Below are positions 6,701 through 34,194 of a stretch of DNA of 52,278 nucleotides, in pieces (within the stretch, counting starts at the first letter, position 1; every line of letters begins with the position of its first letter). The notes under the pieces were generated by a model. It was not told where the DNA came from. It saw only the letters and a list, made by a program, of their open reading frames with translations, and did no database searches. Made by a program: the position numbers and the translations under genes. Source of the stretch: Craspedostauros australis (Eukaryota); NCBI GenBank assembly GCA_030167865.1, contig JALAGF010001309.1, positions 62,001 through 114,278 of the forward strand. The letters are read 5' to 3'.

Positions 6701-7497
6701 AGAGCGATGCGTTGCAGTCGAAGAGGCAGTTGTCGTCTTTTGCATTTCCTTGCGCATCATGCACTGAGGAATGATGCGATGCGATGCGATTGCAGTGAGC
6801 GCCGTTGTGCGATGATGGGGTGGAACGCAATGGAATACAGTGCAGTGCCGTGTATTGCATTGAAATGGAATGGAAATCAAAGTGGATTTCGAAGCGGTCT
6901 TCATTTTCAACCCAAGTCAATAAAGTTTGAAGCAACACTATTTGTACCATACCATCGTGACGCCACTTGCGCTCTGTAGATCAAGACTCAGTCTCATACT
7001 CTATGCTCCATGAACTGCTTTGGGAAATGTGAGATTGAGCAAGGAGAACAGAAGAATCGGAGCAGAGCAGAGCAGAGCAACAAGAAGGCGTTCCGCCTGC
7101 CGATCCCAGTTGGCCTCACCGCATTTCGCTTGCACAGTCTATCACTCGGGATTAGATGTAGGTACAACTCACGATCCAGACGAATGCGTGAATGACCCAA
7201 GCGTTGCCGAAAAGACTCCGATGGCTGCACAAAGTGGAAAGCAACCAAGTGTGCATGCAGATTCATCTTTGTGCAACTGAGGCCATCACCACCCTCTTCC
7301 TCACACAAATGGATGTTTGGATTGCATCATTGTTTGCATTGTTAGTCGCATGTTGGTCGGATCATCGCAGTCGTCGTCATCGGCATCTCGCAGAGCAGCA
7401 CTCGATTGAGAACACAGCACACGCAATTGCAGCAAACAAGATTGAACAAACACCAACGGCAGAAGCCAAAGCTCCATCCCGAATCTCATCCTCCCAC

Positions 7498-9571
7498 ATG
7501 ACGCAATCCGAGGCAACCTCAGCATCAGAAGCATCGACGACAGAAACACCCGCCAAGCGACGCAAGCTGGACGAACTTACCACAACAGCAGCAGCAGCAG
7601 CAACAGCGGCATCAGCAGCAGAAGTAACAACAACGATGAACTCCGAAGCGCACTACCAGCCACCATGCGTGATGAAGGGCAAGGCGACGTTTGACGCTGC
7701 CGAAGTGCAACGACTCGTGGAGAAGTACCCTCTGAGCGATAAGATCTCGCACTACGGCTACGGAACGGCGGGCTTCCGCTTCAAGGCCAACCTCATGGAA
7801 GGCCTCATGGTGCGCGTCGGCATCATCGCGGCCCTGCGCGCCTTTGGCGTCGACGGCGATGTCGGCGTCATGGTCACGGCCTCGCACAATGACGAATCTT
7901 ACAACGGAGTCAAGATGGCGGATCCGCACGGTGGCATGCTGGCCGCGGATTACGAGGCATTCGCGACGAAGCTGGTCAACGAACGCAATGTCACGCAGCT
8001 CTTGTCCACCCTGACCGACCAGATGGCCAAGCACGTCAACGGCGATGGCATTGTGCATATCGGACGGGACACGCGTTCCCATTCGCCGGCCTTGTCGGAG
8101 CTCGTCGTGCGCACGGCCCTCAGTATGGGTGCCACCGTCATGCATCATGGTATCATCACGACGCCCATCTTGCATCATTGTGTTCTGCATGCCAACGCGG
8201 CCGTGCATCTGCCAATCTACATCCCACCGCGTCCCAACACCAAAGGATATCTCGATCTGCTGGCGCATGCGTATTGGGGATTGATTCAAACGGCCACGCC
8301 GGCTGCAACACAACAACAACCGCTGGTCGTGGATTGCGCCTGCGGCGTGGGATACCCGCTGGTGTCGGCATTGCAGGAACGTATCCAGACCGTGTCGAAT
8401 GGCAAGGCGCGACCAATCCTGCCCACCAACAGTCCCGCCGATGGCCCATTGAATGACGGTTGCGGGTCTGAATTCGTGCAGAAGCAGGTGCAACCACCGA
8501 CGTGGTACAACGGCGACACCTTGCCCACTGATCGCACCTACTGCGCATCGTTGGATGGCGATTCGGATCGCATCGTCTTCTTTGCGCAAGATAACGACGG
8601 TGGTGCCTTCACCTTGCTGGATGGCGATAAGATTGCCGTCCTCATTTGTGCATTCCTGGAAGATCAGTTGAAGGTCCTGTATCAGATGGATTCCACTTTG
8701 CCCGCGTTGAGATTGGGCGTCGTGCAAACGGCCTACGCCAACGGTGCATCCACCAAGTATTTGAAGGTATGTACGGACCTGCATGTGTGTATGGACGCAT
8801 GTGTGACATTCTACCCTTTGTTGTGTATACCATACTGTGCGTGTCGGATTGGGAGAGCAAGAAATGCATAACTGACTCACCATCATCCCTTCTCCTCGAT
8901 GCTATTCCATCACATCCACACGCACATACGTACGTAAATACTGCACTACACTCCACCCATTCGCGCAGGCCAAGTTGGGCGCCGACAAGGTTCTCATTGC
9001 CAAGACCGGCGTCAAGCACGTCCATCACGCCGCAGTCGAGAATTTTGACATCGGCATTTACTTTGAGGCCAACGGTCATGGCACCGTCATTTTCGACGAG
9101 CAGACCTTCGGCAACCTCCTGCAGAAGTGTCCACCATCCGTCCGCGCCACACCAGAATGGCAACGCCTGCGACTGCTGCCTTCGTTGATCAACCCTGCCG
9201 TCGGCGACGCCCTCAGCGATCTGCTACTGGTCGATGCCATCCTCACGATCCGCGGTGGCTGGACCATCCAGAATCCGTGGAGCACGCTGTACCAGGACTT
9301 CCCAAGCCGTCAGCTCAAGGTGCCTGTGCCAAATCCCAAGCGCATCCAGACCAACTCCAACGAGACGCGGGCCTTGGCACCGGAGGGATTGCAGGATGAG
9401 CTGGATCTCCTCATGCAGCAAGGTGGCGGGCGTACCTTCGTGCGTCCTAGCGGGACGGAGGCCGTTGTGCGGGTCTATGCAGAGGCCACGACGCAAGCTG
9501 AAGCTGACAAGCTGGCCGCCGAAGCCGAAAAGCTCGTCGACAAGTACTGTGGCAACTACTCCAAACTGTAG
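7498..9571 (+). CDS. PGM3: Phosphoacetylglucosamine mutase; exons 7498-8766 and 8969-9571
   Basis: Motifs YGTAGFR, VMVTASHN, DCACGVG, SLDGDSDR, DGDKIA, VVQTAYANGAST, TGVKHVHH, IYFEANGHGT and RTFVRPSGTE. The phase-0 intron 8767-8968 (GTATGT...GCAG) joins YLK|AKLG in frame. Start uncertain (7498 or 7636). Confidence 0.95.
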
Positions 9572-9866: not shown

Positions 9867-12800
9867 CTAAAACCCGGCAAGCCGAAAGAGGGATGGCAGT
9901 ATGCCATCATCTGGGCGCTGTTCCGACGTTGCGCAGAAGACCAACAGATCATCGACTGCATCTGATGCACGGGAGAGATCATCCGAGATGACGGAGAATT
10001 GATTGTGCGCTTCGTCATCGTCGTCGTCATCGAAGTTATCCATCGCATATGGCGATTGGCGAATCGCAAGGGCCGTCGTTGTTCCGCGTCGCAAAGGATC
10101 ATCATCATGGCGCAATTCGCATTCGTAAAACTGTTCGGAATGTGGCTGCTGCTGCTGCTGCGGAAAGATGCTGTACGTGCTGTGCTTTTCGGTTGTGTGC
10201 TTGAGCCGTTCCGCCAATGTCGTGAGAGGCTTGCGACGCTTGCAGTCCACGCCAGCGTGGTCTGGAAGGAACCAATCGTACTTGGGAGTGTAGAACGAGT
10301 TGAACGAGTCGTCCGCACCACTGGTGTAGCTTCTATCCTGATCTCCCTCGTCGTCGCCATCATCCTCAGAGAGGAAGACGATCTCGATCTCAGATCGCGG
10401 CGATGATGATTGATCATGCGGCCCCCTGAGGTTGGAGGATGTCCATGTTCCCGATGCCTCTGATTGGTTGCGTGATGAAGCAAATCGTGCCTCCGTCAAC
10501 GGGTTGACTGTGCTCGCACGCGGATAGACTTGGTTGGATGGTGCTGAATTCGATGCGCCAGTGTCCACGAGGACGCCGGGGGACTCGTCTGGCGTGCCTG
10601 TGTGAATGAAGGGAACATCGTCAAGAAAATTCCCTGCGTACACATCACGGAGAGATCCATGTGCCGAGTTGAATTCGTCGTCGTCGTGGTTGCTGCTGGA
10701 CTCCTCCATGGTTGCGTGCATTCGGAGGTCATTGGATTCACTGGTAGGCGTTGCGCTGTGATCGCTGTGCCTGTGTGACGCGGACCCGAGGATCGTTTTG
10801 ACGTAGTCATCATCCATGCGCAGCAATTCATCGATGGAAGATCCTCCGTTGGATGACGAGGCGCTGCGTCCGCTGCTTCGATTGTTGTGCGGGGTGAGCA
10901 GGGATGACGTGTTGTCAAGATGCCGGTGCGTCTTCTGCAGCTTTCGGAGATGACCCCTGGGTCGGGTGTAGGATATGCCCAACTCGTGACCGTCGGGCGA
11001 GACGGACAATTGCGACTTCTCGAATGTGTCCGCCAACATCTCGGAGGTGGGATCGAAGACGATGATCCTTCCTACGATGTCCTGATCCTGCTCGGCGGCG
11101 TTGCGAAGTCGCTGCTTGCTGCTGCGCTGGCGCCTGCGTTCCCTTCCGTCCTCATCAGAGGACGACAGGGAATCGGCATCGTCATCATTGCCAGCTCTGC
11201 CCGGCGACTTTGGAAGTGCGTCGTTGGTGCGACCGATCGCCAATGTCTTGGAGTTGACGACGCTCTCTTTGGCCCCATCCTTGGTTTGGAGGATCTTGTC
11301 GGGGGAGCGCTCGTCCTCTTCTTCGTCGCTGGAGAGACCACTGGTGACACCAACGTTATCAACATCAACGTTATCAACAACATCAACGTTATCAACATCA
11401 TCAACGTCGTCATCTTGCATGGTCTGGATGGTGTCCAACTCGGGGTGTTGGATACCGATGACGCTGCTGAAGAAGAAGCTTTCATCCTGTGACGAGACAT
11501 CATCCGTGAACATGGCTGGCACATCCATGCGATCATGATTCTGCGTCCTGCGGTGTTTGGATGGATCGTTGAGCTGTGAGTGTTGATCTGCTGTGGTGTT
11601 GGCGGTCATGGCGCATGCGTTCTTGTCCAAGATGGTGCCGGTGATGTTGGCAGGCTGGACGTTTGGATTCTGGTTCTCGCCATCTGGTTGGAACTCGACG
11701 ATCCCGACCTCCGAATCATCATCCTGCATGTAATGTGCCACAATGACATCACGCCTTCGCTGTTCTTCCTCCTCCTTTTGTTGTCGTTGCTGCAGCTGCT
11801 GTGCTGTTGGAGATGGTTCCGAGTTCGATTCCATGTCCGTGGAGTGCTGGGGTTGATCCACAAGTTCGAGGAACTTCATTTGCGTCTTCTTTGTCTTCTG
11901 CTGCGTGACGGCGTCGGTGGCTTCCTTCGTCCTCCGTTTCTGGATGGACTTCTTGAACTTCTTGCGCAGCGAGTGCACCATCTTCTTCACGCCTCTTTTG
12001 CTGTTGTTGGCAGGGTTGATGTTTGCAGCGTCATGCTGTTGCTGGTGCTGCGGGCGAAGACGATGGAGGCGTGGTGTCGAAGGCGTTGATGTAGAAGTCG
12101 TTTGTTTGTGAGCGGTAGATTGCGGAACGGGTTTGACCTTGGATGTCGCGGGCGTTGGTGTCTGATCATTGGCGGGGTTTTCACGCTCGGTGTTGAAATT
12201 GATGCCAGCCGTGGCTACGGTTGCTGGTGTTGGCGGCGTTGCAGGTGGAGACGTCAATGTGGGTATGAGAACGGAACGATTTGGCTGCGACCGCGACTGC
12301 AGGAGTGGTTGCTGCGAGGAAGAGAAGGAGGACGGCGATGACGGTGGTGACGATGGAACCGGAAAGGAACCTTTTGGTCGCTTTCGGAAGATGGAATTGC
12401 CTTTGCCCCACCGCAACGTTGGGAAACGTCTCCCCACTTGCTGCTGCTGTTGCTGCCGTTGCCTCAGTTGATGCTTCTCGCGCTGATGGTGGTGATGATC
12501 ATGATGATGCTCCTGCCGCTTCTTCTGCTTGCGCTCGCGACGAACTTGCTTTCTGTGAGACCGAAAGTCCCTCTGTTGCTGTGATTGTGCGTACATATTG
12601 AAGTTGTAGGCCTGCGTTGTGAACGTTTGCGCGCCCGTCTCGGGAGAGTTGCTGCAATTGCTCGCGTCGCAAGTGGGCGATGGGTCGCTTGTGGTCGACG
12701 AGGCTGACGACGAAGCCGAAGATGATGACGACGACGAGGACGTCGCCGTGAGCGCGTGGAGAATTGCGCCTTCCGCACTGTTGGCGAGGATCGGAGCAAT

Positions 12801-12938
12801 GTCGTTCGTCTGTGTACGGGTATGTGTACGGGTATGTGTACGGGTATGTGTACGCGTCTTTGTACTCGTATGCTTTCCGGACAGCTGAGGCCAAATGTCT
12901 GCTGGTGGTGGAAGGTCTGCCTCTGGCTGGGTCTCCAT
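9867..12938 (-). CDS. Long low-complexity, probably disordered hypothetical protein (~1023 aa)
   Basis: 3.1 kb uninterrupted ORF with first ATG at 12938; poly-S/Q/H/D tracts and basic clusters; no recognisable domain. Confidence 0.75.
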   Translation of the reverse strand: METQPEADLPPPADIWPQLSGKHTSTKTRTHTRTHTRTHTRTQTNDIAPILANSAEGAILHALTATSSSSSSSSASSSASSTTSDPSPTCDASNCSNSPETGAQTFTTQAYNFNMYAQSQQQRDFRSHRKQVRRERKQKKRQEHHHDHHHHQREKHQLRQRQQQQQQVGRRFPTLRWGKGNSIFRKRPKGSFPVPSSPPSSPSSFSSSQQPLLQSRSQPNRSVLIPTLTSPPATPPTPATVATAGINFNTERENPANDQTPTPATSKVKPVPQSTAHKQTTSTSTPSTPRLHRLRPQHQQQHDAANINPANNSKRGVKKMVHSLRKKFKKSIQKRRTKEATDAVTQQKTKKTQMKFLELVDQPQHSTDMESNSEPSPTAQQLQQRQQKEEEEQRRRDVIVAHYMQDDDSEVGIVEFQPDGENQNPNVQPANITGTILDKNACAMTANTTADQHSQLNDPSKHRRTQNHDRMDVPAMFTDDVSSQDESFFFSSVIGIQHPELDTIQTMQDDDVDDVDNVDVVDNVDVDNVGVTSGLSSDEEEDERSPDKILQTKDGAKESVVNSKTLAIGRTNDALPKSPGRAGNDDDADSLSSSDEDGRERRRQRSSKQRLRNAAEQDQDIVGRIIVFDPTSEMLADTFEKSQLSVSPDGHELGISYTRPRGHLRKLQKTHRHLDNTSSLLTPHNNRSSGRSASSSNGGSSIDELLRMDDDYVKTILGSASHRHSDHSATPTSESNDLRMHATMEESSSNHDDDEFNSAHGSLRDVYAGNFLDDVPFIHTGTPDESPGVLVDTGASNSAPSNQVYPRASTVNPLTEARFASSRNQSEASGTWTSSNLRGPHDQSSSPRSEIEIVFLSEDDGDDEGDQDRSYTSGADDSFNSFYTPKYDWFLPDHAGVDCKRRKPLTTLAERLKHTTEKHSTYSIFPQQQQQPHSEQFYECELRHDDDPLRRGTTTALAIRQSPYAMDNFDDDDDDEAHNQFSVISDDLSRASDAVDDLLVFCATSEQRPDDGILPSLFRLAGF
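12811..12854. repeat. 12-bp tandem repeat (TGTGTACGGGTA) x3.7, encoding (THTR)n on the minus strand
   Basis: Read directly. Confidence 0.9.
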
Positions 12939-15900
12939 TATTTGATACTCTGGCCTGGTGTTGTCTCCAGACGTCGTGGTCACTCGCTGTGTTGCTGCTC
13001 TTGACACAGTTGTTGTTGTTGTTGTTGCTTGCGGTACTACGCGCTGTTGCTACCACGATTCCAACTCCAGCTCTGGCGTGTTGCGTGCTACGCTGCCGCT
13101 GTTGTTGTTGCTGGGAGGGTCGGGATGAAGTTCGGCGCCAGTCACAACAGCGGAGTGAAGCGTTTGAATCTGGCGTTTTTCTGGTTTTATGTGTGAAGCA
13201 CGACTTGTGTTGTGTTGGTGTGGCACTGCACCGTTCTGTCGCCAAATCGCCAACGATGAATGAGTAATGTGATGGATCCGTCTCTCTTGGGTTAGCTCGT
13301 GCTTTGCGAGTATGACGACGAGGGTACCAACGACAACGACAACGACACCACAGCACAGACGATGAAGATAGTGGTGGCAGTAGTGGTGGTGGTCGCTGTG
13401 ATGCTTCCCAATGAACTTTCAGTACTGCCGACTTCTCGAGGAGGTGCTAGTTGTGCCTACCTTTGTTGCGGTGGCCCAGGTCCTGAATGACCCTCTGCTG
13501 CGGCTGTTGGGGGACGAGGCTGAGAATCCTCCAACCCAACTGGAAGTCTGGCTCGACCCACGTGGAAGAGCGGACGCAAATGCGAGCCTGGTGCGCACCC
13601 AACCAGATTCAGCTTCGCCGTGAAACCCCAGTGATGCAAAGCAAGCAAGCACGCGCTGCCAACCAACCCACGACAAGCACGCACAGAGCTCTTTTGCACT
13701 GTGGATCGGGTTCTCAAAAGTGCGCCCGAGTGACGCGATTCTCCTTGGCGCGCGATGTTCGGCTTCGTGTTCAGTGGTCGGCAAACGCTGCAAGAGCAAG
13801 CGTCAACGATGGCAACGAGCAAACCGCTTCTCTGGCTTGGATCGCTCTTGGATTGTTTCGTTTCTCTTGGCTTTTCTTTGTCTTGTGTTGGTTTGTTGGA
13901 ACACAGCTGTTCTCTATCTTGTGGACTATTGGAGAGATCGATCGATGGCAGTGGTCGAATTGTGATGGATGAACAAATGAATGGATCAATGAATCAATGA
14001 GAATACGACAGTAATGGCAGCGTCGAGCAGCGTACTGGCGCGCGGTCGCATGAGAGAAACAGGAGAGGGCAGTGGATGGTTGAATGAGCGTTGTGTTGGG
14101 TATGAACACACCACACTCATCCGCGCGCTTCCACTTGAAGTTGCACTTGCGCTAAGATGGAGGATGCTCGTTGTGTTTTCTGTTCTTTGTCCCGCACACA
14201 CAAGGCATGCGTGGCGCGCACAAATACTCACTTGCTGTCCGTGTCTTGGTGGATTGGCTCTCTCGGGCAGTGTGGATGTCCGTGCACCACTCTCCGACTC
14301 CAACTCTTCGGCGCCCAGGATGCGAGCCTGTGACGCAAACACGGTCCAGAGAGAGGGATCCAATCAAGAAAAGGAGCTCCGGCCGAAATTGGAAACGGTG
14401 ACGCTCCCTCTCTTGCGCACGGTAGCGGCGACAGAATCTCCGTTTGCGAGACCGCCGAATCAAACTTTTGGCTTTCCGGGTTGCGCTTGCTCGGTTGTTT
14501 TGGTGTGTGTTTGTGTCTTTGTCCCTTGCCATCTCATGACGTTGTTCTCGTTCTGGGGTTTTGCGCACTTCGCAACCGTTGTGCCAGTACCTTCACTCCC
14601 TTCGTTGGAAGATCTCCTCTTCTGGAATCCCACAACAATTGCGAAACACATGAAGCAACCCGTGCAACAACCATCGCCCATCGCTTTCTCACTCGCAAAA
14701 CCTCTTCCATCCAAACAACACATCATCAACAACATCGACAGCATCGACAACATCGACACATCACAAAATAGTCCACTCCATCCAGACAACTTGCGCCACG
14801 GACGACAATTCACCTCACTGATCACTAATTTTGTCCACACCCTCGACAATCCATCGGCAATCGATTGGCCTAATAATTCCCACAATTTTGTTTCGACAGT
14901 TCCAACCCTCCGAACGTTATCAACAGTTAAAGATAACGGCAATTGGAATTGGGGACTCCCCATCGATTTGATTGGAATACATTTAGTCGATGTGATCGTA
15001 AGTCCGGTTGAATGTCGGACGTGCAATAACCATGACTCGGAGACATGATCCACAGTTAGAGTTTTTAGATCAAGCTAGACGGAACATGACACGATATTGA
15101 TTGCAACGAAGCAAGACGTTGCATGATGCGTTGCCAACGCAACAAGTTCGCATGTTAATGACCTTTGTTCTCCTGTATCTCAACATACGCATCAGCCACG
15201 AATACAAGCAGTCGAATGGACGTCTCAATCATTGATGGTCATTGGCGCGACAGAAGCACCACGATGCGTGCGGAGTGGTGCGATCGGAGAGTAAGTAAGC
15301 GTTGCTGCGCAGCTAATTGTGGAGTGTGGGCATTGAGTACGTACAGTAGTTGGTAACTGTGTTCCTTCTTCATCCACCGCTCCGCGAGTATCCTGCTCTG
15401 CACTTCCGTCTCCTCCGATGGAACTCTCTTGATTGAGGTGAGCACCGCCTCTGTTGCGAGTTTCAGTGATGATACGACAGCAGCTGCCACAAAATAGAAT
15501 TTCGAAGACTACTCTTTGCAAGACGTTGGATCGTGTTGGGGACATCACAAAGGACTGTCGCGATCCAAGAATGCCGTGAACGTTCGGTTGGAGGCAGGAG
15601 AGGCTCTGCCGCTCATTCAGTCAACTCTTCCTTCGAGCAATACTATGAGCATTGCCACCATTGATGTGTCGGATGTGGACCTATTAGGCGAAGAGACGAA
15701 GCTGCATTTCGACGTTTGAGGTTAAAACAGGCGGGATATCCGTTACTCGACCCTCACAATTGATAGAGCAATCGTACATCGCCAGCAGATTTGGCAGTTG
15801 CTCCAGAGATGCGGTCTCACCATCCACAGTATCCATCTCTTGTTTGTCAAGCGCCCTCTTCTGCTTGTCTCGATTCTAATCACAGGCTTCTCTTTGTTCT

Positions 15901-16774
15901 CACCTTCCAGTATGGTAGTATTAGTAGAGTAGATGGCATGGACGTCCCATCCTGTTCCATGCTCATCCTATCTTCCCACAAAAGACAGATACAGGAGTCG
16001 ACAAACCCGTCCAATCGGCGCACCAGCAATGCGTTCTCATGAGCGCAGAGTACCCTCTGTCTGTTGTCACTGAGTTGGCCGTCCCTGCTTGTTTCTCCTC
16101 TTTTCGTTCCCGTCACACGACGATGCATTCTTGGTGCTAATCCGCGAAAGACGCCCGCCCCGCTTGCAGTTCGTTCACAGGAACGACCCAAAATCAAAGC
16201 CCCATAAGTGAAATGGATGTTTCGTGCGGGATGAAAAATTTGACCGTCGCGAAGTTCTGGTTGCACTTGGTAAATCTGGACGCTTTACACATGAATGTGA
16301 CGGATGGAGGACGTCGTGTTGGTGGCACAGTTGGTAACTCGAAAACGTAGCACATGGACATGCATCGGTTGGTATACGCGTTCCAATCTTGTGAAATGAT
16401 AGAATTTTGGCGCCGCCATTTCACAATTTGGTGCGCATTTGTGATGTTCCCAACAAAATCGTGATAGTGCAAGGTGTCTGTGCCCAACACCAAAGACAGA
16501 CGCAACCACAGAGTGGCGACAATCGCAACACAAAGGAGAGAGAATGCATCCGAACCGCATCCACCCGCACAAACGATTGTTCATAAAGACAGCACCAAGA
16601 AGCAGAACATCAGTGGACATCTACCATCGTTGCTACTCGCCACAAAACAAAAGCCAGCATCAGGCACAGCAAGCGTACTCGAAGCCAAGAGGGATCATCA
16701 TCACAGCAGTGGCTCCACCCCAGGTCATTCCCGAATTGGACCACACACATCGTTCTCCTGTAGTTGCATCCGAC

Positions 16775-16832
16775 AACAAGAATAGCAACAAGAATAGCAA
16801 TAGCAAGAATAGCAATAGCAAGGATAGCAAGA
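16775..16832. repeat. Imperfect AAGAATAGC/AATAGC tandem repeat immediately upstream of ATG 16838
   Basis: Read directly. Confidence 0.8.
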
Positions 16833-16837
16833 AGACA

Positions 16838-19800
16838 ATGCCGTCCTTCGCATCATCGTCCGCACTGCTCGGGTGCCTGATGGCATCCCTCACACTGAGC
16901 AGCATGCTGCGAACGACGGCCGCGCAGGACGTCAGCGCCATCCGCGTGCTCTCCAGCAGCACGGGCTCCACCAACAAGATCGAATCGCTGTTCGAGATCG
17001 AATACACCAGCGCCTTCGACACCCCCGTTGGAATCGCCAAGGCCGTCAGGGCGCTCGTGGACTCGTACAACGACCTCGTGGAGGACGAATTCGCCAACCC
17101 CTTCCAGGCGGAGATGGATGAGATGGATCTTCTGCAGGTCTTCGATGGCAACCGGCGGCTGCTGCAGGTCAGCGATGCCCTCAAGGAGCCGGATCATTCG
17201 CACCGCGCCTTGCAGACGTCCTCGGAGCCGCACGTCTACAAAGTGCGGGCCATGGGAGTTGGCACCTGCTCTGGCTGCGATTCGCTCTTCCAATTCACCA
17301 GCGACGACATGGACGACCTCCCAACGGAAGACGAGCTCCTCGAGGCTTACGCCGATGATGTCGAAGACCTGCACCTCGGTATCAGCGTCACCGATCTGGA
17401 GGAACACCCAGACTCCAGCGGCGGCAAGGGCAAAGGAAAGGGATCCAAGGGCGGTTCCAACGGCTCTGGCGGCAACAACGGCAACAACGGCAAGCACGGC
17501 AAGTCCCTTTCCTGCACTCCGGAGCGAAACGCCAACGACGGGTTCTCCTCCTTCTTCTTCAACCTCTTCACCAACGAACTGGCCGTCGCGCTGGGTGTCG
17601 AGGTCGCAGGAAAGGCGCTGGCTCAGGCCTACAATGAGCTCGTTCAGGAGTACGAGAATCCCTTCCAAGCCAGGATGGACGAATCCGCGATCGTCGACGA
17701 GAGCGGTCGCCGCCTGACGGACGAGGACCTCAGACGCAACCTCCAGCAGCTGCCAACCTTCACAGCCTTCTCCATCGGAATTGGATCCTGCTTCAGCTGC
17801 GGTAGCTCGTTCCGCTTCACCAACGACATCACTTTCCAGCGAGAGCTCAAGTCCAACAAGAGTGACAAGAGCGATAAGAGCGACAAGAGCACCAGCTACA
17901 GCTCACCGTCATCTCCCAGCCGAAACAGCAAGAGCGACAAGAACGGCAAGAACGGCAAGAGCTCGAAAACCAGCAAGGAATGCCCTGAGCTCCTCCCAGG
18001 CTTGCCAACTGAGGAAGAGCTCCGAGTCGCCTACGACCGCGTTCTCGTGGAGATTGCGGCGGACCAATTCGATGCCATTCTGGTGCTGGAGGAGCTTGAC
18101 GCAGTAAGTAAACTTTGTGCGCAACATGTGTCGTTGTGGCGTTGATGTGCGGTTAAGATTCCGCAAACACTTGGGCCGATGTTGGAAAGAGTGTCCATTC
18201 TCCTCTATGCTCTGGTTTGATGAGCGAACCATGGGTTGCTGTCATGCCCGAATGCCAAGCCGCAAGCCTTGTCACCAACACTCACTCTTTTCATCTTTCA
18301 CCCCCATTGCGTCACGTACTTGTTTCACCGCGGGCCACACCAACACACCGTATACACGCGCTCTTCATTACGCACACCGTCCATCCCACAGCTTCCAACC
18401 TCCCACCCAACGTTTGCGCCAACCAAGTCGACCAAAGCGCCCAAGGGCGGAGGACCCAACGGCCCGTCCGAGCCATCCATGCCATCTGGGCCATCCATGC
18501 CGTCCGGTCCATCTGGGCCATCCGGTCCATCCATGCCGTCCGGTCCATCTGGGCCATCCGGTCCATCCATGCCGTCTGGTCCATCTTCGCCAGGAAAGGG
18601 AAAGGGCAAGGGCACCAAGTCTGGACCAACAACGCCCTCCGGTCCGTCGGGCCCATCGGGTCCGTCTGGTCCATCCGGCCCATCACACCCCACTGGCCCA
18701 TCGATGACGGCTGCCCCGTCTGGCCCGTCTGGTCCATCGCACCCCACCGGCCCATCGATGACGGCCACTCCATCTGGTCCATCCGGTCCATCCGGCCCAT
18801 CCTCGCCAGGAAAGGGCACCAAATCCGGACCAACAACTCCGTCCGGTCCATCCGGTCCATCCGGCCCATCCTCGCCAGGAAAGGGCACCAAATCCGGACC
18901 AGCAACTCCGTCCGGTCCATCCGGTCCATCCGGCCCGTCTTCGTCAGGAAAGGGCACCAAATCCGGACCAGCAACCCCAACTGGCAAGGGCAACAAGTCT
19001 GACTCTTCCGGCAAGGGTGCTAAATCTGATTCCTCTGGGAAGGGAGACAAGTCTGATTCTTCTGGAAAGGGCACGAAGGTGGCACCACCAAAGGAATATC
19101 CCCTCATCCGCAGCGACAAGTCATCGAAGGATTCCAAGAGCTCCGGGAAGGGTAAGGGAACCAACAAGAAAAAGAGCGACAAGAGTGGCTCACCCGCGCC
19201 ATCCACGAAGAGCGGCGGCAAGAGCGCCAAATCGGAACCTTCAGGTCCATCTGGTACACCGTCTGGTGAGGGCAAAGGCAAGGGCGCAAAGGTTGCATCC
19301 TCCAAGGACTACCCGCTGATCCGCGACGACGAAGGCAAGGGTAAGGGCAAAGGTAACAAGTCAGGCCCCAGCGCACCAGCCGGGCCGTCCGGACCAACCA
19401 AGAGCAACAAATCTGAACCGTCTGGACCTTCAGGCCCATCGATGCCGTCAGGTCCTTCAGCCCCTGGCGGGCCACCAACACCATCTGGTCCTTCAGCTCC
19501 AGCCGGACCAAGCAAGAGCAACAAGTCTGGACCGTCCGGCCCGTCTGGACCCTCAGGCCCATCGATGCCGTCAGGTCCTTCAGCCCCTGGCGGACCACCA
19601 ACACCATCAGGTCCTTCAGCTCCAGCCGGACCATCAGGCCCATCGATGCCAGCTGGACCAAGCAAGAGCAACAAGTCTGGACCCTCTGGACCATCCGGCC
19701 CGTCTGGTCCATCCATGCCGGCAGGACCATCTCATCCATCGGGTCCATCTCAACCATCAGGCCCATCTCAGCCATCAGGTCCATCTCAGCCATCGGGTCC

Positions 19801-20140
19801 ATCCCACCCATCGGGTCCATCTCAACCATCGGGTCCATCTCAACCATCGGGTCCATCCCACCCATCAGGTCCATCTCAACCATCGGGTCCATCGATGCCA
19901 TCAAACCCATCTGGCCCATCAATGCCATCTGGACCAAGCCCCAAGGGTCCATCTCACCCATCGGGTCCATCCCAACCTTCTAGTCCTACAGGGCCATCGC
20001 AACCAGCGGGCCCATCCGGCCCATCAGCCCCGGGCAAGGGCGCCAAGGCATCGTCGGGCAGGGACTACCCGCTGATCCGTGAAAGCGACGAATCAAAGAG
20101 CACCAAGGATAGCTCACGCCGTCGTGTGCGTTTGGCTTAG
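16838..20140 (+). CDS. Secreted silaffin-like/collagen-like extracellular protein, ~1004 aa; exons 16838-18103 and 18392-20140
   Basis: Signal peptide MPSFASSSALLGCLMASLTLSSMLRTTAA; RXL motifs (RVL, RRL, RAL, RNL, REL); KXXK blocks; (GPS)n tracts. The phase-0 intron 18104-18391 (GTAAGT...CACAG) joins ELDA|LPTSHPT in frame and links two ORF-track entries. Confidence 0.85.
18460..20035 (+). repeat. Coding tandem repeats: Gly-Pro-Ser triplets, PSGPS[MHQ] hexapeptides, KSDSSGKG and PGKGTKSGP units
   Basis: Read directly from the DNA and the translation; synonymous variation between units. Confidence 0.95.
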
Positions 20141-24987: not shown

Positions 24988-25854
24988 ATGATGCTTTCAA
25001 AATCAACACGGAGACTCGTCGCCTCCTCGCAGTGGCAGTCGACGGCTGCCCGATCCCTGTCGGCGTGGATACCTTCTGCTGCGGCACCATCGGCTCGTCG
25101 TCTTCGTCAGGATTCTGCGTCAATGCACAACCACAGAATGATGAGCCAATTATCGACACCATTCTCCATGGGCGCATCATTTTCAGCACCCGAGACAACC
25201 GCGTCAGGCATTCCAAGAAGTAGCAATGCCCGTTTCTTTGCTTCGTCGTCCGACGCAGACAAAAAGGAAGGCGACGACGCCAAGACGACGGACGAGGCCG
25301 ATGCCACGGCCACAGATGAAACCAAAACCGAGGACGAAGCCGCAACCGAGGAGGAAGCCGTGGATGAAAAGGAGATCGAATTGAAGCAACTCAAGGAGAA
25401 GGTGTCGGAATTGGAGCAGCGACTCCTGCGTTCTTATGCCGAGCAGGAAAACATCCGCAGCATCGCCAAGCGCGATGTCCAATCGGCCCGCGACTTTTCC
25501 ATTAAGAAATTTGCCAAGACCCTGCTCGATGTCTCCGACAACCTGTCGCGCGCCCTGGATGCCGTGCCGGAAGAATTGCGCAAGGATACCGAGCACCATG
25601 CCGTGCTGGCCGCGCTCTACGAAGGCATCGAAATGACGGAGAACGGTCTCCTCAAGTCGTTCGGACAGAATGGTTTGACCAAGTTTTGCGAGGAACCCGG
25701 CGACGTCTTCGATCCCACCAAGCACGAGGCGTTGTTCGAGTATCCGGATCCGGAAAAGGAGCCAGGCACCGTGGGGCAGGTCATGAAGGTCGGATTCATG
25801 CTCAACAGCCGTGTGTTGCGACCCGCGGAAGTCGGCATCATCAAGAAGGCATAG
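24988..25854 (+). CDS. grpE: GrpE nucleotide exchange factor, mitochondrial type, 288 aa
   Basis: LLRSYAEQENIR, FSIKKFAKTLLDVSDNLSRAL, LYEGIEMT, FDPTKHEALF and GFMLNSRVLRPAEVG; R/S-rich N-terminal presequence. Confidence 0.95.
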   Translation: MMLSKSTRRLVASSQWQSTAARSLSAWIPSAAAPSARRLRQDSASMHNHRMMSQLSTPFSMGASFSAPETTASGIPRSSNARFFASSSDADKKEGDDAKTTDEADATATDETKTEDEAATEEEAVDEKEIELKQLKEKVSELEQRLLRSYAEQENIRSIAKRDVQSARDFSIKKFAKTLLDVSDNLSRALDAVPEELRKDTEHHAVLAALYEGIEMTENGLLKSFGQNGLTKFCEEPGDVFDPTKHEALFEYPDPEKEPGTVGQVMKVGFMLNSRVLRPAEVGIIKKA

Positions 25855-27471: not shown

Positions 27472-28207
27472 GGCGCTTTTGAGTTACAGTACGATGTATA
27501 GAGTGGTGGCTGTTGGTGAAATATGGAGAGTATGATACAATAGTCGATTATGTTGCAGTATTACTCTTGATCATGTGGATGAGAAACAGTTGAAACGTTG
27601 GCCTTTTCGTCATTTGGGCATGAGTGTTGTTGGTTAGTTGATGTGTTGATGCGTTGATGTGATGTTTGTGAGGTGTGCGGGTTTGGATCGGTTCTGCCAT
27701 TTTCGGATTTTCTTGAATCATTGTTTGAATTGTCATCTAGTCGATGTGGTCGGAGACATTTGTCAGACATCTTGTACTCCAACGAGTCGACGATGTACTT
27801 TCGCCGACTTTTTATATTGTATTAAACCTTGAATAAAACGTATATAAATCCCCGCGATAAGTAACTCGCGTCTTCCATGTCGCAGAAAGAGTCCTTGAGC
27901 GACGCGGCGCGAGAGCCGGGGATTGCTCGCCATCTCATCGGATGTCACATCAAAAATGAGCCCACACCAGATCGCAACACATCGCGATCGCCGTCGGCAC
28001 CGGCAGACCACCTGCGCACACGCACAACTCAACCCCATTCGCCAACTTGTGCAGGCTTGTCACTTTCGGCATTTCACCATCATCCTCGCCATCGACGCCA
28101 TCATCAAACATCAAGCATCAAGCATCAAACATCAAACATCAACACAAGCTCCGCGGGACATTGCGTTCATTCATCTGCAAATACAACCACCTCCCCAAAA
28201 GCTCACC

Positions 28208-31200
28208 ATGAAGGCATGGAAGTTCAGACGGCAGCAGCTACAGCGCCGTCGTTCTGGAAAAGACACGAAAGAACTGGAGACGAATGTTGCCGGCAACAAG
28301 AAGATCATCTCAAAGCGGAAGCAGCAGCAGCAGCAGCAGCAGCAGCAAACGTACTACAGCAACGGAGATAGCGTCGACAGCGGAGAGGCCCGTTCTGATT
28401 CCGGTCGGACGAGGCGAGAGAATGATGTTGCTGGTGACAACCAGCGACGTGCACCCAACGACGATCCACTGCACTCACCTTATGGAATGAATGGGCGATC
28501 TCAGCACGCCATCAATGCTTCCAATTCACCAGTGCGCCACAGGCTGCAGCACTTCCCAACTCCGAACAATCAATCTCCTTATGCTGGCGCTCCCCACCAC
28601 CCGCACGACAATGGCTGGTACGGTTACGCGCCTGGTCCAGCGTACGGGTATGAACATAGCCAGGATTATGTGGATGGGCGCTCGACACCACGCAACAAGC
28701 GATCTCCCCGAACGCAGCACTACGATCGAGCATATCACTCCGGCCACGGTACCACCAATCCTTCAACAGGGTACGAGCACAATGGCCACCGCTATCATGA
28801 GTACAATCATCCACGCCACCAACAGTATCAGCATCCGCAACAACAACAATCGCAGAGCGGGGGTGGTATTTTCTACGATACGGCCGATGTGGGTCCATAC
28901 GGCGGTCCCTCCACGACGTACGGCAACCATGCACCGTCATATCCACACACTGGACACGTCCAAGATCGGGTGCAGCAACTGCAACGACATGCGTCTCCAA
29001 TACCATCGCGCGATCCAAGGATGGTGATGGAGGCAGGCGGGTATGGGTACGCATCCTTTGAGTACCATCAGCCTCAACATACTGGTGCGTATGGTGACAG
29101 AACGCTTGGCCAACCTTCGTATTACATGCAGCAAGGACTGCGGCACAGCAACCATTACACATTTCAACAACAACAACAACAACGTGGCGGTGGTGGTGGT
29201 GGTGGTGCTCCTCCTCCCAGCATGAACTACCAGGATGACAATGGCGATGAAGATGTCAGCAATAGCAACAGCGCCAGTCACAGTGCCAGCGCCGGTGCGA
29301 GCGTCAGTGTGAGCGGTAACGGCAGTGCCAGTGGCAACACCAGCTCACAACTTTCCGTCATTTATGACGAACGCGAAGATTCCTGGACCCGCGACGATCA
29401 TCCCAGCAGCAGATCATCCTCGAAGGTATCCCACAGGGAGTGGGTTGATGGCAAAGCGGATGGTTCATCCGCCGCCTCGTCAACAGCATCCTCTCTGCAA
29501 CGCAGGCAACGGCGCTACATGAGTCAATTCACACATCCATCAACAACAAACAACGGCGAACGCCTGGAAATGGGCGTGACGCGCATGGGAACCATGTCGT
29601 CCACCCCCACAGCAGTCAAGTCGGCTTCGGTGAAATCGTCATCATCCACGAAGGGCGGTGGCGAGAATAGCACGTCGCAGGAAAGCAGCGTGAATGGAAA
29701 GACGAGCAAAAGCGCCAAGAGCAAGGGCGGCAGCGTGGGGAGCAAGACTGGGAAAACCAGTGTGACCAATTCCTTATCCGAACATCCTCACACTCGCGTG
29801 AGCGATGACGCCTACTGTCTTTCGATTGCATCCGGGAAAACGACGCTATCTTCTCGATCATCACCCTTCAAGAAACATCGCAATCCATCCTCAATAACAG
29901 CCTCCGGCTCCATGGCGTCGTCGTTGTCATCCAACTCTGGCACGAAGAGTTCCGTCAAATCGTCCCCCTCCAACCAACACCATCAGGCCTCTTCCGGCTC
30001 CAGCACCGTAAATGGTGGCAGCAAGAAGAGCACGAAGTCCGCAAAATCTCGAAACTCAGCGAACAGGTTCGTGCGGGATGGCGAAAACGCATCGCAAGCA
30101 TCCAGGGGATCTTCTTCTTCTTCGACGTCGCAGTCCAGAGCTTCCAAGTTCGGCCTGAACTTCCGCCGCATGGCCAGGCTTCCAGAAAACCGAGAGATGA
30201 TGGAGGAGGAGGAGGAGGAGGAGGAGGAAAGCGTTGGTACGGAATCGCTCGGCAAGTACAAGCAAGCAACAACAGCGCCGGAACAGGCCGCGGAAGACCT
30301 GGTGCGTTCGCTGGAGGCCATGGGGTACGGTAGGGACAAGAACGGGGAACTTGACCTGCAAAATAGCGTATCCGATGCGCTGAGCATATCAGAACGATAC
30401 AAAAGGGACGGGGAGGACGCATCTGAGGGACACCGCAGCAGCTCCTCGCGATCGAGCAAGCGCAGGAATGGACTCAATGCAACATCATTCTCGTCGCAGC
30501 AGTCGTCGAAGCCTGGCACCGGCAGCATACGATCAACAGCACGGCGGATACAACGATACGGTGTGCCCACGCTACATGAAGCCATCGTGACGGAGGAGGT
30601 CGACGGAGATGAGGGGGCTGAGCTGCGGCTGATCGAACCTAGCACGATGGATGGTGGTGTCATCCCGAATCAAAACGCGCGTCGCCAAATCAGTATCAAC
30701 AACGGCAATAATATGAGGGCTGCCGTTGCAGGGAATGGTCATGGGAACATCATCACCGGCCTTGAACAGATGGCATTGCATGCCGCTGATGGTGCTTCGT
30801 CAAAGGAAAACACCTACTTCGACGAATCCACAATCTCCACCAAACTCACGGCCGAGATTAACCGCAAGAACCTGGATTGGAAGCGACAGGAGCGGTTGTA
30901 CCAAGAGGAAGGATCGTTGCACGTTGATACCACCAACCTGATCCTGCAGAACATTCAGGAGCAGCTGCATTCACCTGGCGCAGCATCGCCCACCACAATG
31001 TCAACGCAACGGATGGCGAACGGTGCGAGACGGAACCAATTCGACGCCAACGGGAACCTCGCGAACGAAGCGAGTTATATGTTAAATGCACAACAGCACC
31101 AGCGATTGCGACAACCACCGAAAGCGGTGCCTGCATCAACCAGCTTGGTTGGGAATGCGATGAACCGCCTCTTTGGTGTCATCGAATCACCGCCATCCGA

Positions 31201-31726
31201 AACAGGAAAGAGCGCCAACAGCATCCTTGAGCAGCAGCAGCAGCAGCAGCAGCAGGTGATGACAACCGCCCCAGCACAATCATCAGAAGTGGGAATGCCG
31301 ATTGCATCTGAAGCATCCCCAAACGGAGGCGTCGTGATCGCTTCTCCTCCGAACAACAACAACATCACAACTACGACCACGACAACAATCAGCCCCTCGC
31401 CTTCCGCCGGTTTGGGCGGAACACCAGGCAGCAACGCCAACATGACACCCAACGGTGCCAACAGCAACAACGAGAAGAGGGTGGACTTCGGCGGTGAGAT
31501 CCCCCCAAGTGCCATCTACGGCAACGACATGAAGTCCATCATCTCCGACATCTCCTTGTCGATCCCACCCACGACCATGATGTCGACGGAACCCATGCCA
31601 GGAATCATCACAGAAAACGGATGCTCGAGATGGATGGATCAAGTGCTGTTGTCATGTCGTTTGGCATTCCAACCGACACAGGCAGCAGTGGCGGCATCAT
31701 CGTCGTCTCTGCCACAAAAGTTGTAA
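28208..31726 (+). CDS. Long low-complexity hypothetical protein, 1172 aa
   Basis: Uninterrupted ORF from ATG 28208; Y/G/H/Q-rich N-terminal third, S/K-rich middle, poly-E and poly-Q tracts; no recognisable domain. Confidence 0.8.
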   Translation: MKAWKFRRQQLQRRRSGKDTKELETNVAGNKKIISKRKQQQQQQQQQTYYSNGDSVDSGEARSDSGRTRRENDVAGDNQRRAPNDDPLHSPYGMNGRSQHAINASNSPVRHRLQHFPTPNNQSPYAGAPHHPHDNGWYGYAPGPAYGYEHSQDYVDGRSTPRNKRSPRTQHYDRAYHSGHGTTNPSTGYEHNGHRYHEYNHPRHQQYQHPQQQQSQSGGGIFYDTADVGPYGGPSTTYGNHAPSYPHTGHVQDRVQQLQRHASPIPSRDPRMVMEAGGYGYASFEYHQPQHTGAYGDRTLGQPSYYMQQGLRHSNHYTFQQQQQQRGGGGGGGAPPPSMNYQDDNGDEDVSNSNSASHSASAGASVSVSGNGSASGNTSSQLSVIYDEREDSWTRDDHPSSRSSSKVSHREWVDGKADGSSAASSTASSLQRRQRRYMSQFTHPSTTNNGERLEMGVTRMGTMSSTPTAVKSASVKSSSSTKGGGENSTSQESSVNGKTSKSAKSKGGSVGSKTGKTSVTNSLSEHPHTRVSDDAYCLSIASGKTTLSSRSSPFKKHRNPSSITASGSMASSLSSNSGTKSSVKSSPSNQHHQASSGSSTVNGGSKKSTKSAKSRNSANRFVRDGENASQASRGSSSSSTSQSRASKFGLNFRRMARLPENREMMEEEEEEEEESVGTESLGKYKQATTAPEQAAEDLVRSLEAMGYGRDKNGELDLQNSVSDALSISERYKRDGEDASEGHRSSSSRSSKRRNGLNATSFSSQQSSKPGTGSIRSTARRIQRYGVPTLHEAIVTEEVDGDEGAELRLIEPSTMDGGVIPNQNARRQISINNGNNMRAAVAGNGHGNIITGLEQMALHAADGASSKENTYFDESTISTKLTAEINRKNLDWKRQERLYQEEGSLHVDTTNLILQNIQEQLHSPGAASPTTMSTQRMANGARRNQFDANGNLANEASYMLNAQQHQRLRQPPKAVPASTSLVGNAMNRLFGVIESPPSETGKSANSILEQQQQQQQQVMTTAPAQSSEVGMPIASEASPNGGVVIASPPNNNNITTTTTTTISPSPSAGLGGTPGSNANMTPNGANSNNEKRVDFGGEIPPSAIYGNDMKSIISDISLSIPPTTMMSTEPMPGIITENGCSRWMDQVLLSCRLAFQPTQAAVAASSSSLPQKL

Positions 31727-33906: not shown

Positions 33907-34194
33907 GTGCTGCTGCTGTTGCTGCTGCTGTTCTCGTTGCACGCTCAATTGATGTGTTGGTGGCTGTTGCCGTATTCTGCACGGTGGCGATGGAGCCTCG
34001 CGTTGCCGTCGCATCGTCACACATAGCCGTGCCTCCACCATCGTTCTCTTTCCAATGCCATGCAATTCTTTGCAATGGCTTTCCCTGCGAGGTGCTCGGA
34101 TGCTTCTCTTCTTCCCCATGTTCTTTGACGATGAATCTCCCATTTCCTATCACTCTGTTGTATAGCATGCTTGGGCGATCTTGAAACTGCACCT

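Follow-up and report, generated by a model that had tools for sequence, protein, structure and literature searches.

Proteins of the diatom wall and mucilage are for the most part disordered and fast-evolving and resist alignment; what the field has at hand are short motifs of unknown function and an RXL protease that is yet to be identified. RXL is described as a motif that is typical of the pro-regions and cleavage sites of biosilica proteins in diatoms (PMC5525289, PMC4557024; here and below, cited papers are represented by selected passages), and the precursors of silaffins, cingulins, and silacidins are cut at short motifs that end repeat units by an endopeptidase that is still unknown (PMC4557024, PMC5501833). 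A pentalysine cluster, i.e., five Lys within 12-14 residues, is an experimentally defined silica-targeting element (PMC9650480). Soluble proteins of the silicome share only short motifs of unknown function, GKS.K, GKA.K, KSGK, and SMSM (10.1101/2021.09.18.460806), and KG repeats are reported from a cell wall protein of A. coffeaeformis (PMC4220933). In the TLP-4 fibril, Pro-Ser dipeptides are the glycosylated pair, and Pro-Ser/Thr repeats are pictured with O-glycans on dihydroxyproline and on Ser/Thr (10.1101/2023.03.06.531300, PMC11725842). Here, we analyze the pentapeptide YPLIR, which occurs three times in the repetitive tail of a predicted secreted protein of the diatom Craspedostauros australis. 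The protein is encoded on contig JALAGF010001309.1 within positions 62,001-114,278 of the forward strand, a stretch of 52,278 nt with 54.3% G+C that we refer to as the window and number from its first base. We conclude that, very probably, the tail is truly coding and YPLIR is kept in it by selection on the peptide.

Three diverged copies of YPLIR with an unchanged peptide core

A six-frame scan of all 52,278 bases of the window found YPLIR at exactly three sites (19097, 19310, and 20066), all in a single plus-strand frame. This bears out the three sites and their peptide contexts as given in an earlier note on this DNA. The looser pattern [YFW]P[LIVM][LIVM][RK] adds one match in the window, the unrelated YPMMK at 710. 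The pattern GKG[AT]K..[KR][DE]YPLIR, which the earlier note had proposed for the repeated element, has no match because its two-residue gap is wrong; with a gap of four residues, GKG[AT]K.{4}[KR][DE]YPLIR matches three times. YPLIR is the end and core of a diverged 16-residue unit, GKG[AT]K-x4-[KR][DE]-YPLIR. Based on the six-frame scan, the codon comparison, and the pattern match, the three plus-strand copies are GKGTKVAPPKE-YPLIR (19064..19111, core 19097-19111), GKGAKVASSKD-YPLIR (19277..19324, core 19310-19324), and GKGAKASSGRD-YPLIR (20033..20080, core 20066-20080). The shoulders of the motif are patterned, with a basic and then an acidic residue before the Tyr and Ser, Asp, or Glu after the Arg ([KR][DE]-YPLIR-[SDE][DS]).

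The core is encoded by TAT CCC CTC ATC CGC in copy 1, TAC CCG CTG ATC CGC in copy 2, and TAC CCG CTG ATC CGT in copy 3. We compared 5 core, 12 upstream, and 5 downstream codons pairwise among the three copies. Copies 1 and 2 differ by three synonymous and no replacement changes in the core, two synonymous and five replacement changes upstream, and none and four, respectively, downstream. For copies 1 and 3, the corresponding numbers are 4 and 0 (core), 1 and 8 (upstream), and 1 and 4 (downstream); for copies 2 and 3, they are 1 and 0, 2 and 5, and 0 and 5. Altogether, each pair differs by 9-12 replacements in the 17 flanking codons (5-8 upstream and 4-5 downstream), while the core differs by one to four synonymous changes and not a single replacement, statistics that are indicative only because the core was delimited after looking at the sequences. 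The copies are nearly saturated at silent sites, yet the peptide is unchanged. The combination of purely synonymous change in the core and many replacements in the flanks argues for conservation at the protein level rather than for a DNA or RNA element or a recent duplication, and the core appears to be kept by purifying selection on the peptide and not on the DNA. Thus, the claims that YPLIR is invariant while codons and flanks vary, and that the site is a selected one, both agree with the codon comparison.

In an alignment of three 121-nt DNA stretches around the copies, identity is 69% per column, and the unit is the best-kept block. Tandem Repeats Finder reported 25 rows of arrays; they stop at 19071, start again at 19499, and stop once more at 20025, and none of the three YPLIR units falls within any of them. 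The tail arrays near the units are recent expansions that are 89-95% identical. The YPLIR units are old and diverged, unlike these very recent tandem expansions in the same tail. Two of the latter, at 18767-18975 and 19727-19893, are a 69-nt unit present three times with 95% matches, which codes for GKGTKSGP[AT]TPSGPSGPSGPSS[PS], and an 18-nt unit present 9.3 times with 89% matches, which codes for GPS[QH]PS.

The three motifs contain all three Tyr, all three Ile, and three of the five Leu of the 582-amino acid (aa) exon 2 translation, which has no Trp and no Cys. Its sole Phe lies outside the motifs, and two of its three Val are in the upstream flank of the motif (KV). The view that the motif supplies nearly all of the bulky hydrophobic residues overlooked 12 Met, which are located in SMPS-type repeats; it holds for Tyr and Ile and for three of five Leu, and as a whole only if Met is set aside. 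We shuffled exon 2 20,000 times with its composition preserved, and not one shuffle placed an identical tetrapeptide after all three Tyr. A chance origin of the three copies is excluded; common descent by duplication is the fairer null.

A predicted two-exon gene for a secreted protein

The motif frame is open from 18224 to 20140 (1,917 nt, 638 codons) and lacks a start codon ahead of the repeats. Across exon 2, it has no stop codon, compared with 4, 12, 24, 10, and 4 stop codons in the other five frames. An upstream open reading frame (ORF) at 16445-18145 is in the same phase and contains a Met codon at 16838 that is followed by a signal-peptide-like segment; the two ORFs share the frame, with stop codons between them. 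Based on these features, the motif frame is most likely exon 2 of a secreted protein of ~1,004 aa that consists of a signal peptide, an RXL motif, two acidic modules, and a basic tail and that is generated by a predicted splice. The intron in this model is 288 nt long and in phase (18104..18391, plus strand, GTAAGT...CCCACAG), with GTAAGT as the donor (18104) and ...CCATCCCACAG as the acceptor (18391). Of all GT/AG pairs that keep the frame, only 18104/18391 combines a consensus donor with a pyrimidine-rich acceptor, and every frame-keeping alternative listed leaves the YPLIR frame unchanged. The junction LEELDA|LPTSHPTFAPTKSTKAP parallels LEELQS-LPTKSPANAPTVSPNKAP in the homolog P0005 (11 of 18 residues identical; E = 0.20, weak by itself). 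Exon 2 of this model (18392..20140, plus strand) encodes a 582-aa low-complexity basic tail (18392-20137) followed by the stop codon. The tail ends with the 19-aa peptide ESDESKSTKDSSRRRVRLA after motif 3 (20081..20140 on the plus strand, including the stop codon), whose polybasic end is SSRRRVRLA; polybasic C termini recur among the relatives (RRGRRM, GKRRRI, RKGRL, KGKRTR, and SRRRS). The P0005-like junction and the polybasic C terminus are two habits of the family, and both support the predicted splice. The two exons also have the same preference among Lys codons, with AAG:AAA ratios of 43:10 in exon 2 and 19:3 in exon 1.

The start codon and the predicted signal peptide (residues 1-30, MPSFASSSALLGCLMASLTLSSMLRTTAAQ) are at 16838..16927 on the plus strand. 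In the whole protein, only one stretch of 19 residues is hydrophobic (residues 6-24, Kyte-Doolittle value 1.41), and it aligns with the hydrophobic N termini of the homologs. A few residues past the signal peptide, the pattern R-x-L is matched by IRVL (residues 35-38; 16940..16951, plus strand). The maximal Kyte-Doolittle value in exon 2 is -0.41; this lack of a hydrophobic window argues against a membrane anchor in the tail, and together with the signal-peptide-like start, it suggests that the tail is luminal or extracellular. YPLIR formally fits several cytosolic Tyr motifs, i.e., YxxPhi, the Atg8-interacting [WFY]xx[LIV], and the ALIX-type YPx[LI]. These readings are excluded by the same topology.

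Reading through the donor (18104-18145) gives LEELDAVSKLCAQHVSLWR* with a stop codon at 18143-18145. Because this end resembles the C termini of several homologs (LEEIDRVSIDTE, LKEIERVSLRVA, and LVEIDRVSCFLLQ*), intron retention may give rise to a tail-less isoform beside the tailed one. Intron retention is prominent in the diatom P. tricornutum (PMC5859163).

The head modules belong to a family of diatom proteins

Exon 1 encodes 422 aa comprising the signal peptide, IRVL, and two copies of a module of ~150-190 residues, which are 33% identical over 107 residues (E = 6e-14). In the AlphaFold2 (AF2) model of the head, which was built on the family alignment described below, the mean predicted local distance difference test (pLDDT) score is 70.7 and the predicted template modeling score is 0.45; most 10-residue blocks have means of 76-98, and the linkers are below 50. 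Module 1 (residues 45-190; 16970..17407, plus strand) is modeled in the order beta-alpha-beta-beta-alpha-beta, with strands at residues 45-58, 92-103, 132-145, and 182-190 and helices at 66-84 and 164-177; its block means range from 51 to 98 and are low only in a loop near residues 107-127. In module 2 (residues 233-420; 17534..18097, plus strand), the model places strands at residues 233-245, 279-286, 307-319, and 416-420 and helices at 254-271 and 392-407, and the pLDDT is below 50 at residues 329-356, 361-379, and 381-385. A 57-residue Lys/Ser-rich insert (KSNKSDKSDKSDK...KNGKNGKSSKTSK; 17822-17992) of low confidence lies between the third strand and the second helix of module 2. The insert has three pentalysine-like windows (residues 338, 365, and 368), which span exon 1 residues 338-380, and the model suggests that a silaffin-like loop is placed inside a folded domain.

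Pfam identified no family in either exon. An exhaustive HMMER search of 1.84 billion representatives with the head gave 24 relatives at E ≤0.001, of which 9 had E ≤1e-10 and 2 had E ≤1e-30. The best relative, from Nitzschia sp. Nitz4, is 929 aa long and has five modules (E = 1.4e-57), and the closest head-domain identity among the matches is 38-41%. An organism name was available for 2 of the 11 relatives checked, namely, the Nitzschia protein and P0008, which is from a Bacillariaceae metagenome-assembled genome. The family alignment contains the window protein and 21 of the 24 relatives; P0001, P0008, and P0009 were left out to keep the two-module register. The shared layout consists of a signal peptide, often R-x-L, a module, a Lys/Gly/Ser linker, LPTEEEL..AY...LDE[IV], and often a lysine-rich tail. 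Within the module, YN.L, NPF/DPF, GRRL, and C..C are conserved. R.L is present within residues 16-70 in 13 of the 21 family proteins that start with Met, including the window protein (four N-terminal fragments were left out).

Comparison of the fold with PDB structures using Foldseek gave no match at E ≤0.001; the weak matches are assorted ferredoxin-like alpha/beta domains. In PDB sequences, the head profile matched only histone H2B tails (E ~0.09), which reflects lysine composition. In the ESM Atlas, the best score of the head was 0.81 for a "putative Spondin domain-containing" protein, which is below the counting level, and the tail had no usable match. Among 803 six-frame ORFs of the window, the head profile found no second member of the family. 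The order of the fold elements and the top fold match suggested the SEA domain of mucins as a candidate; it was rejected, given that Pfam reports no family, GSVVV, the SEA autoproteolysis motif, is absent from exon 1, and the best fold match (6v55_A) has E = 2.2e-3 and a template modeling score of 0.17 over 147 columns. Our data suggest that the module is an uncatalogued two-layer alpha/beta diatom domain that is present in up to five copies per protein and that the host of YPLIR is a secreted diatom cell-surface protein and a new member of this uncatalogued family.

The motifs mark borders in a tail of mixed character

The exon 2 tail contains 25.1% Ser, 23.0% Pro, 19.4% Gly, 9.1% Lys, and 5.0% Thr, and Ser, Pro, Gly, and Thr together make up 72%. 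It has 65 GPS tripeptides, 97 PS dipeptides, and hexapeptides of the type GPSxPS (x = G, M, Q, or H). GKG[AT]K occurs eight times, in addition to K.NKS units and SMPS repeats, and there are 21 K..K motifs in exon 2 and 11 in exon 1. The net charge of the tail is +40, compared with -29 for the mature head. The tail has five N-x-S/T sequons, and every one is NKS (exon 2 residues 201, 322, 339, 377, and 427), with four of them in SKSNKS units; these sequons inside KxxK motifs are possible N-glycosylation sites. A collagen-like triple helix is ruled out by the longest run with Gly at every third residue, which is only five triplets.

The motifs are not randomly positioned but lie at the borders of compositionally different subdomains. 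Motif 1 closes a GKGxKSDSS block, motifs 1 and 2 bracket a lysine-rich spacer, and motif 3 is 19 aa from the C terminus. The spacer (19112..19309, plus strand) is the lysine-richest part of the tail, with 16 Lys among 66 residues (24%) compared with 9.4% and 5.3% in the neighboring segments. It also holds the only pentalysine-like cluster of exon 2 (19118-19183; exon 2 residues 243-264, with at least five Lys in 12-14 residues and windows starting at 243-253). Judged by its composition, the disordered tail appears to be a hybrid of mucin- or hydroxyproline-rich glycoprotein (HRGP)-like and silaffin-like sequence.

Comparison with described systems gives a similar picture. Silaffin-like precursors of diatom biosilica proteins form an operational class rather than a homology family; three of their marks, an RXL motif after the predicted signal peptide (IRVL), KXXK motifs, and pentalysine-like windows, are present. 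Like the RXL and RRIL-RRNL sites of the silaffin, cingulin, and silacidin precursors, YPLIR is a short invariant motif with aliphatic residues and Arg that ends lysine-rich units; unlike them, it reads Y-P-L-I-R followed by S, D, or E, is present in three copies rather than once per repeat, and is only a candidate for cleavage. The arrangement of an acidic head followed by a basic repetitive tail is also that of Sil1p (PMC4557024). In the Y-type cingulins of the girdle-band microrings of T. pseudonana, KXXK stretches alternate with Tyr-bearing elements (PMC4557024) as they do here; however, those proteins have Tyr- and Trp-rich domains, while the tail has 3 Tyr (0.5%) and no Trp in 582 residues, with one Tyr per motif. 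Searches with the tail against protein collections found no sequence similarity to cingulins. In CinY1-3, a short conserved non-lysine peptide ("UM") together with lysine clusters decides where a frustule protein is located (PMC9650480), which sets a precedent; in contrast to YPLIR, which is internal, triplicated, and unrelated in sequence, UM (GTNKTLPPTPFPGRPTP) is present in a single copy right past the signal peptide. The GKG[AT]K, K.NKS, and SMPS elements of the tail are of the same kind as the short motifs of the silicome proteins.

The composition of the tail also resembles that of C. australis adhesive material, which contains 22% Ser, 18% Gly, 12% Thr, and 17% dihydroxyproline (10.1101/2023.03.06.531300, PMC11725842), and it agrees with the view of Pro-Ser/Thr repeats as O-glycan carriers given above. 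The mucin-like and HRGP proteins of diatom mucilage differ from the tail, which has GPS/GPSxPS repeats instead of PTxx tetrapeptides and is in addition lysine-rich, and Pfam detected neither a GDPH nor a choice-of-anchor-A domain in the two exons. Extensins punctuate hydroxyproline-rich rods with Tyr motifs. An extensin-type HRGP was rejected as a candidate because the tail contains neither SPP+ nor Y.Y, and the single VYK lies in the folded head. Plant NPIR, a vacuolar sorting signal that tolerates some variation, is likewise a luminal tetrapeptide with Pro, an aliphatic residue, and Arg, and its receptor class is said to exist in diatoms (PMC5264500); the match to YPLIR is only partial.

YPLIR and the tail in other proteins and in the literature

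Scored with a profile of the 21-residue unit, the three copies reach 42.6-44.8 bits, and no family protein exceeds 4.2 bits; the matches in the family are the common GKG[TS]K half or SPTDYPLPD of P0004. Two relatives carry a similar element directly past the last strand of a module, LDEINE-LPLFR-TD in P0009 and LDEIG-IPEIR-SID in P0024. BLASTP does not align motif 3 and the C terminus with the C terminus of P0009, leaving homology of these regions as a lead only. The idea that an acidic residue followed by Tyr-Pro is a linker of the family was dropped: YP was seen 10 times with 11.7 expected, [DE]YP was seen 4 times with 1.6 expected (a count reached by 76 of 1,000 shuffles), and only a pattern picked after looking reached 1 of 1,000.

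No close ortholog was found in the protein collections searched, where no head match exceeds the 38-41% identity given above, and in an exact look-up, neither exon was present in a public protein collection. The gene is probably unassembled or unannotated in that collection owing to its repeats. A word-indexed search with tail residues 205-330 among proteins of similar length scored 8,000 candidates, none at E ≤10; with residues 525-582 among shorter proteins, 134 candidates were obtained, again none at E ≤10. A motif of 5-17 residues cannot attain such E values in a database of 5.8 billion sequences, and these blanks for the tail exclude only near-identical tails. A 26-aa stretch with the motif had no match at E ≤10 among PDB sequences.

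In the literature, the string YPLIR was found only in papers that are unrelated by title and the start of the abstract, in agreement with the statement of the earlier note that no description of the motif is known. Likewise, GPSGPSGPS and its two rotations were found only in unrelated papers. YPLIR is absent from text passages of 10.1101/2021.09.18.460806; its table of 113 enriched motifs (Table S4) is outside the scope of this statement. Within the literature searched, the motif is undescribed; the protein is of a known kind, i.e., a secreted low-complexity wall or mucilage protein with short unconventional motifs.

Possible functions of YPLIR

Five invariant residues with patterned shoulders argue for recognition by a protein rather than for simple Tyr chemistry. 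We suggest that YPLIR is most likely a short linear motif recognized by a processing enzyme or a binding partner in the secretory pathway or the cell wall; of the functions proposed before (protease site, Tyr cross-link, and binding motif), none is singled out, as the sequence does not decide between them. Of the individual readings, we favor a site of endoproteolytic maturation, although only with low confidence. According to this model, a secretory-pathway or cell-wall protein would recognize the motif as an extended peptide, and this protein would be an endoprotease that cuts at or just after the Arg of YPLIR. The cuts would yield four tail pieces: a Gly-Pro-Ser-rich, probably O-glycosylated segment; a lysine-rich peptide of ~70 aa that contains the sole pentalysine-like cluster; another segment rich in Gly, Pro, and Ser; and, at the C terminus, a short basic peptide. 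Such cutting would parallel that of silaffin precursors into peptides at RXL/RRIL sites. In favor of this reading are the unchanged core, the age of the units and their location outside the arrays, their placement at subdomain borders, and the precedent of the silaffin, cingulin, and silacidin precursors, including the Sil1p-like layout. Diatom sequence of the Pro-Ser type is expected to be hydroxylated and O-glycosylated (10.1101/2023.03.06.531300, PMC11725842). Since glycosylation is expected at the 97 Pro-Ser dipeptides among which the motifs hold the only Tyr and Ile, the motifs may form accessible bare patches.

Several observations weigh against a processing site. YPLIR is not an RXL motif. 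The tail encoded by exon 2 lacks R-x-L altogether, although a canonical copy (IRVL) follows the signal peptide; one would expect an organism with RXL processing to employ the motif again in the tail. Not one of the 24 relatives matches [YFW]P[LIVM][LIVM][RK], and YPLIR is thus not a family-wide processing code. Sites of the kexin/furin type need a dibasic or [KR]-x-x-R context, which is not found around YPLIR. Moreover, the invariance of five residues fits a noncatalytic binding site equally well. It is conceivable, if rather unlikely, that YPLIR is a second maturation or assembly code independent of RXL, either as the cut site of a mucin/silaffin hybrid precursor or as a dock onto the alpha/beta modules. 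If so, the peptide with the pentalysine cluster would be released or positioned between two glycosylated rods, and YPLIR would serve as a sequence tag for tracing the as yet unidentified machinery that processes or assembles the organic matrix of diatoms. YPLIR is of interest as a motif that appears to be under selection in a freely expanding repeat tail, at subdomain borders and beside a lysine cluster of the silica-targeting type, and it offers a small and cheap experimental handle on the maturation or assembly of such precursors. Its reach is limited in that it is known from one protein of one genome.

Instead of being cut, the three motifs could act as hydrophobic islands for a folded binding partner, which may be the modules of the protein itself or a different wall protein, and three ligands and two modules per chain would then build a noncovalent network or matrix of hydrophilic chains. 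We consider such docking possible but on balance unlikely. With its hydrophobic core and charged shoulders, YPLIR looks like a binding short linear motif, the similar elements of P0009 and P0024 directly follow a module, and SPTDYPLPDSP follows module 1 of P0004. For P0009, AF2 (mean pLDDT 63.9) places the last strand at residues 596-605 and a short turn at 609-611; the block 601-610 has a mean of 86, and confidence is below 50 only from residue 612, suggesting as a lead that the LPLF part is packed on the module. However, hydrophobic-P-x-hydrophobic-R shows no enrichment among the family proteins (3 seen and 1.9 expected, a count reached by 607 of 2,000 shuffles); an extended pattern (2 seen and 0.04 expected) was chosen after looking; BLASTP gives no alignment of the motif with P0009; the unit profile stays at or below 4.2 bits in the family; and the modules of the other 22 of the 24 representatives are without such a ligand. 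Less probable still, and in our view unlikely, is Tyr chemistry, in which the motif would present the only Tyr of the chain for dityrosine or isodityrosine cross-linking or for sulfation, with three sites sufficing for an insoluble network. It would explain why all three Tyr of the tail are in the motif, each after Asp or Glu (the acid at position -1 suggests sulfation), and the cingulins of insoluble microrings offer a precedent, with KXXK stretches alternating with aromatic regions (PMC4557024). It leaves the invariance of Pro-Leu-Ile-Arg unexplained, and Y.Y of the extensin type is absent, the sole VYK being in the folded head and not in the tail. By the animal sulfation consensus, the basic residue at -2 and the Arg at +4 are unfavorable. 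A literature search found no paper on Tyr sulfation of diatom proteins by title, and DOPA (3,4-dihydroxyphenylalanine) is reported as absent from the adhesive of one diatom (PMC4220933).

It is also improbable that YPLIR is a luminal sorting signal, read by a receptor as plant NPIR is read by vacuolar sorting receptors (VSR) and diverting the protein to an acidic post-Golgi compartment, e.g., the silica deposition vesicle. Pro, an aliphatic residue, and Arg are shared with NPIR, diatoms are said to have receptors of the VSR class (PMC5264500), and the 17-aa UM is needed for frustule targeting of Y-type cingulins (PMC9650480). Still, YPLIR differs from NPIR and bears no resemblance to UM, sorting signals do not usually occur as three internal copies, and the lysine clusters already provide a known silica-targeting signal. 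Quite unlikely, too, is the absence of a present function, with YPLIR as a slowly decaying relic of a duplicated unit, perhaps from a module-tail junction element, whose identity among copies is luck. This would fit the restriction to three copies in one protein of one genome, the lack of an ortholog in the collections searched and of the motif in all 24 relatives, and the fact that the GKG[TS]K half of the unit is a family-wide tail element. It fits poorly with the codons: copy 1 differs from copies 2 and 3 at three to four of the five core third positions without a replacement, and with 12 of 17 flanking codons replaced between copies 1 and 3, the chance of five unreplaced codons is ~(5/17)^5, or ~0.002, a rough value given that the core was defined after looking. 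Finally, we consider it very improbable that the tail is not translated as modeled, i.e., that the frame is wrong or exon 2 is a pseudo-exon. The splice is itself a prediction, the read-through LEELDAVSKLCAQHVSLWR resembles homolog C termini such as LEEIDRVSIDTE, and neither exon is in the protein collection, compared with two of six other looked-up ORFs of the window. Against this, 1,917 nt are open, with no stop codon across exon 2 and 4-24 in the other frames, both exons prefer AAG, the repeat variation is largely synonymous, the junction and the polybasic C terminus match the habits of the family, and the splice alternatives leave the frame of YPLIR unchanged.

Neighboring genes

The neighbors appear to be ordinary eukaryotic nuclear genes. 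Based on Pfam, they encode a glycosyltransferase 61 (1886-3274, minus strand), a phosphoacetylglucosamine mutase (7192-8868, plus strand), GrpE (24988-25851, plus strand), a YacP-like NYN domain protein (32098-34143, minus strand), a Patched/sterol-sensing protein (38716-40317, plus strand), an ShK-domain secreted protein (43744-44517, minus strand), and a Glyco_trans_1_2 protein (47793-49658, minus strand). Two very long open frames of 1,060 and 1,275 codons (9867-13049, minus strand, and 27899-31726, plus strand) contain Gln/Ser/His/Thr runs and no obvious domain on reading. Of the eight window sequences looked up exactly (the two exons and six ORFs), two have an exact counterpart in the protein collection: the GrpE-like ORF at 24988-25851 has an identical entry from mmetsp and eukprot, and a 406-aa ORF at 46435-47652 has one from JGI/IMG and eukprot.

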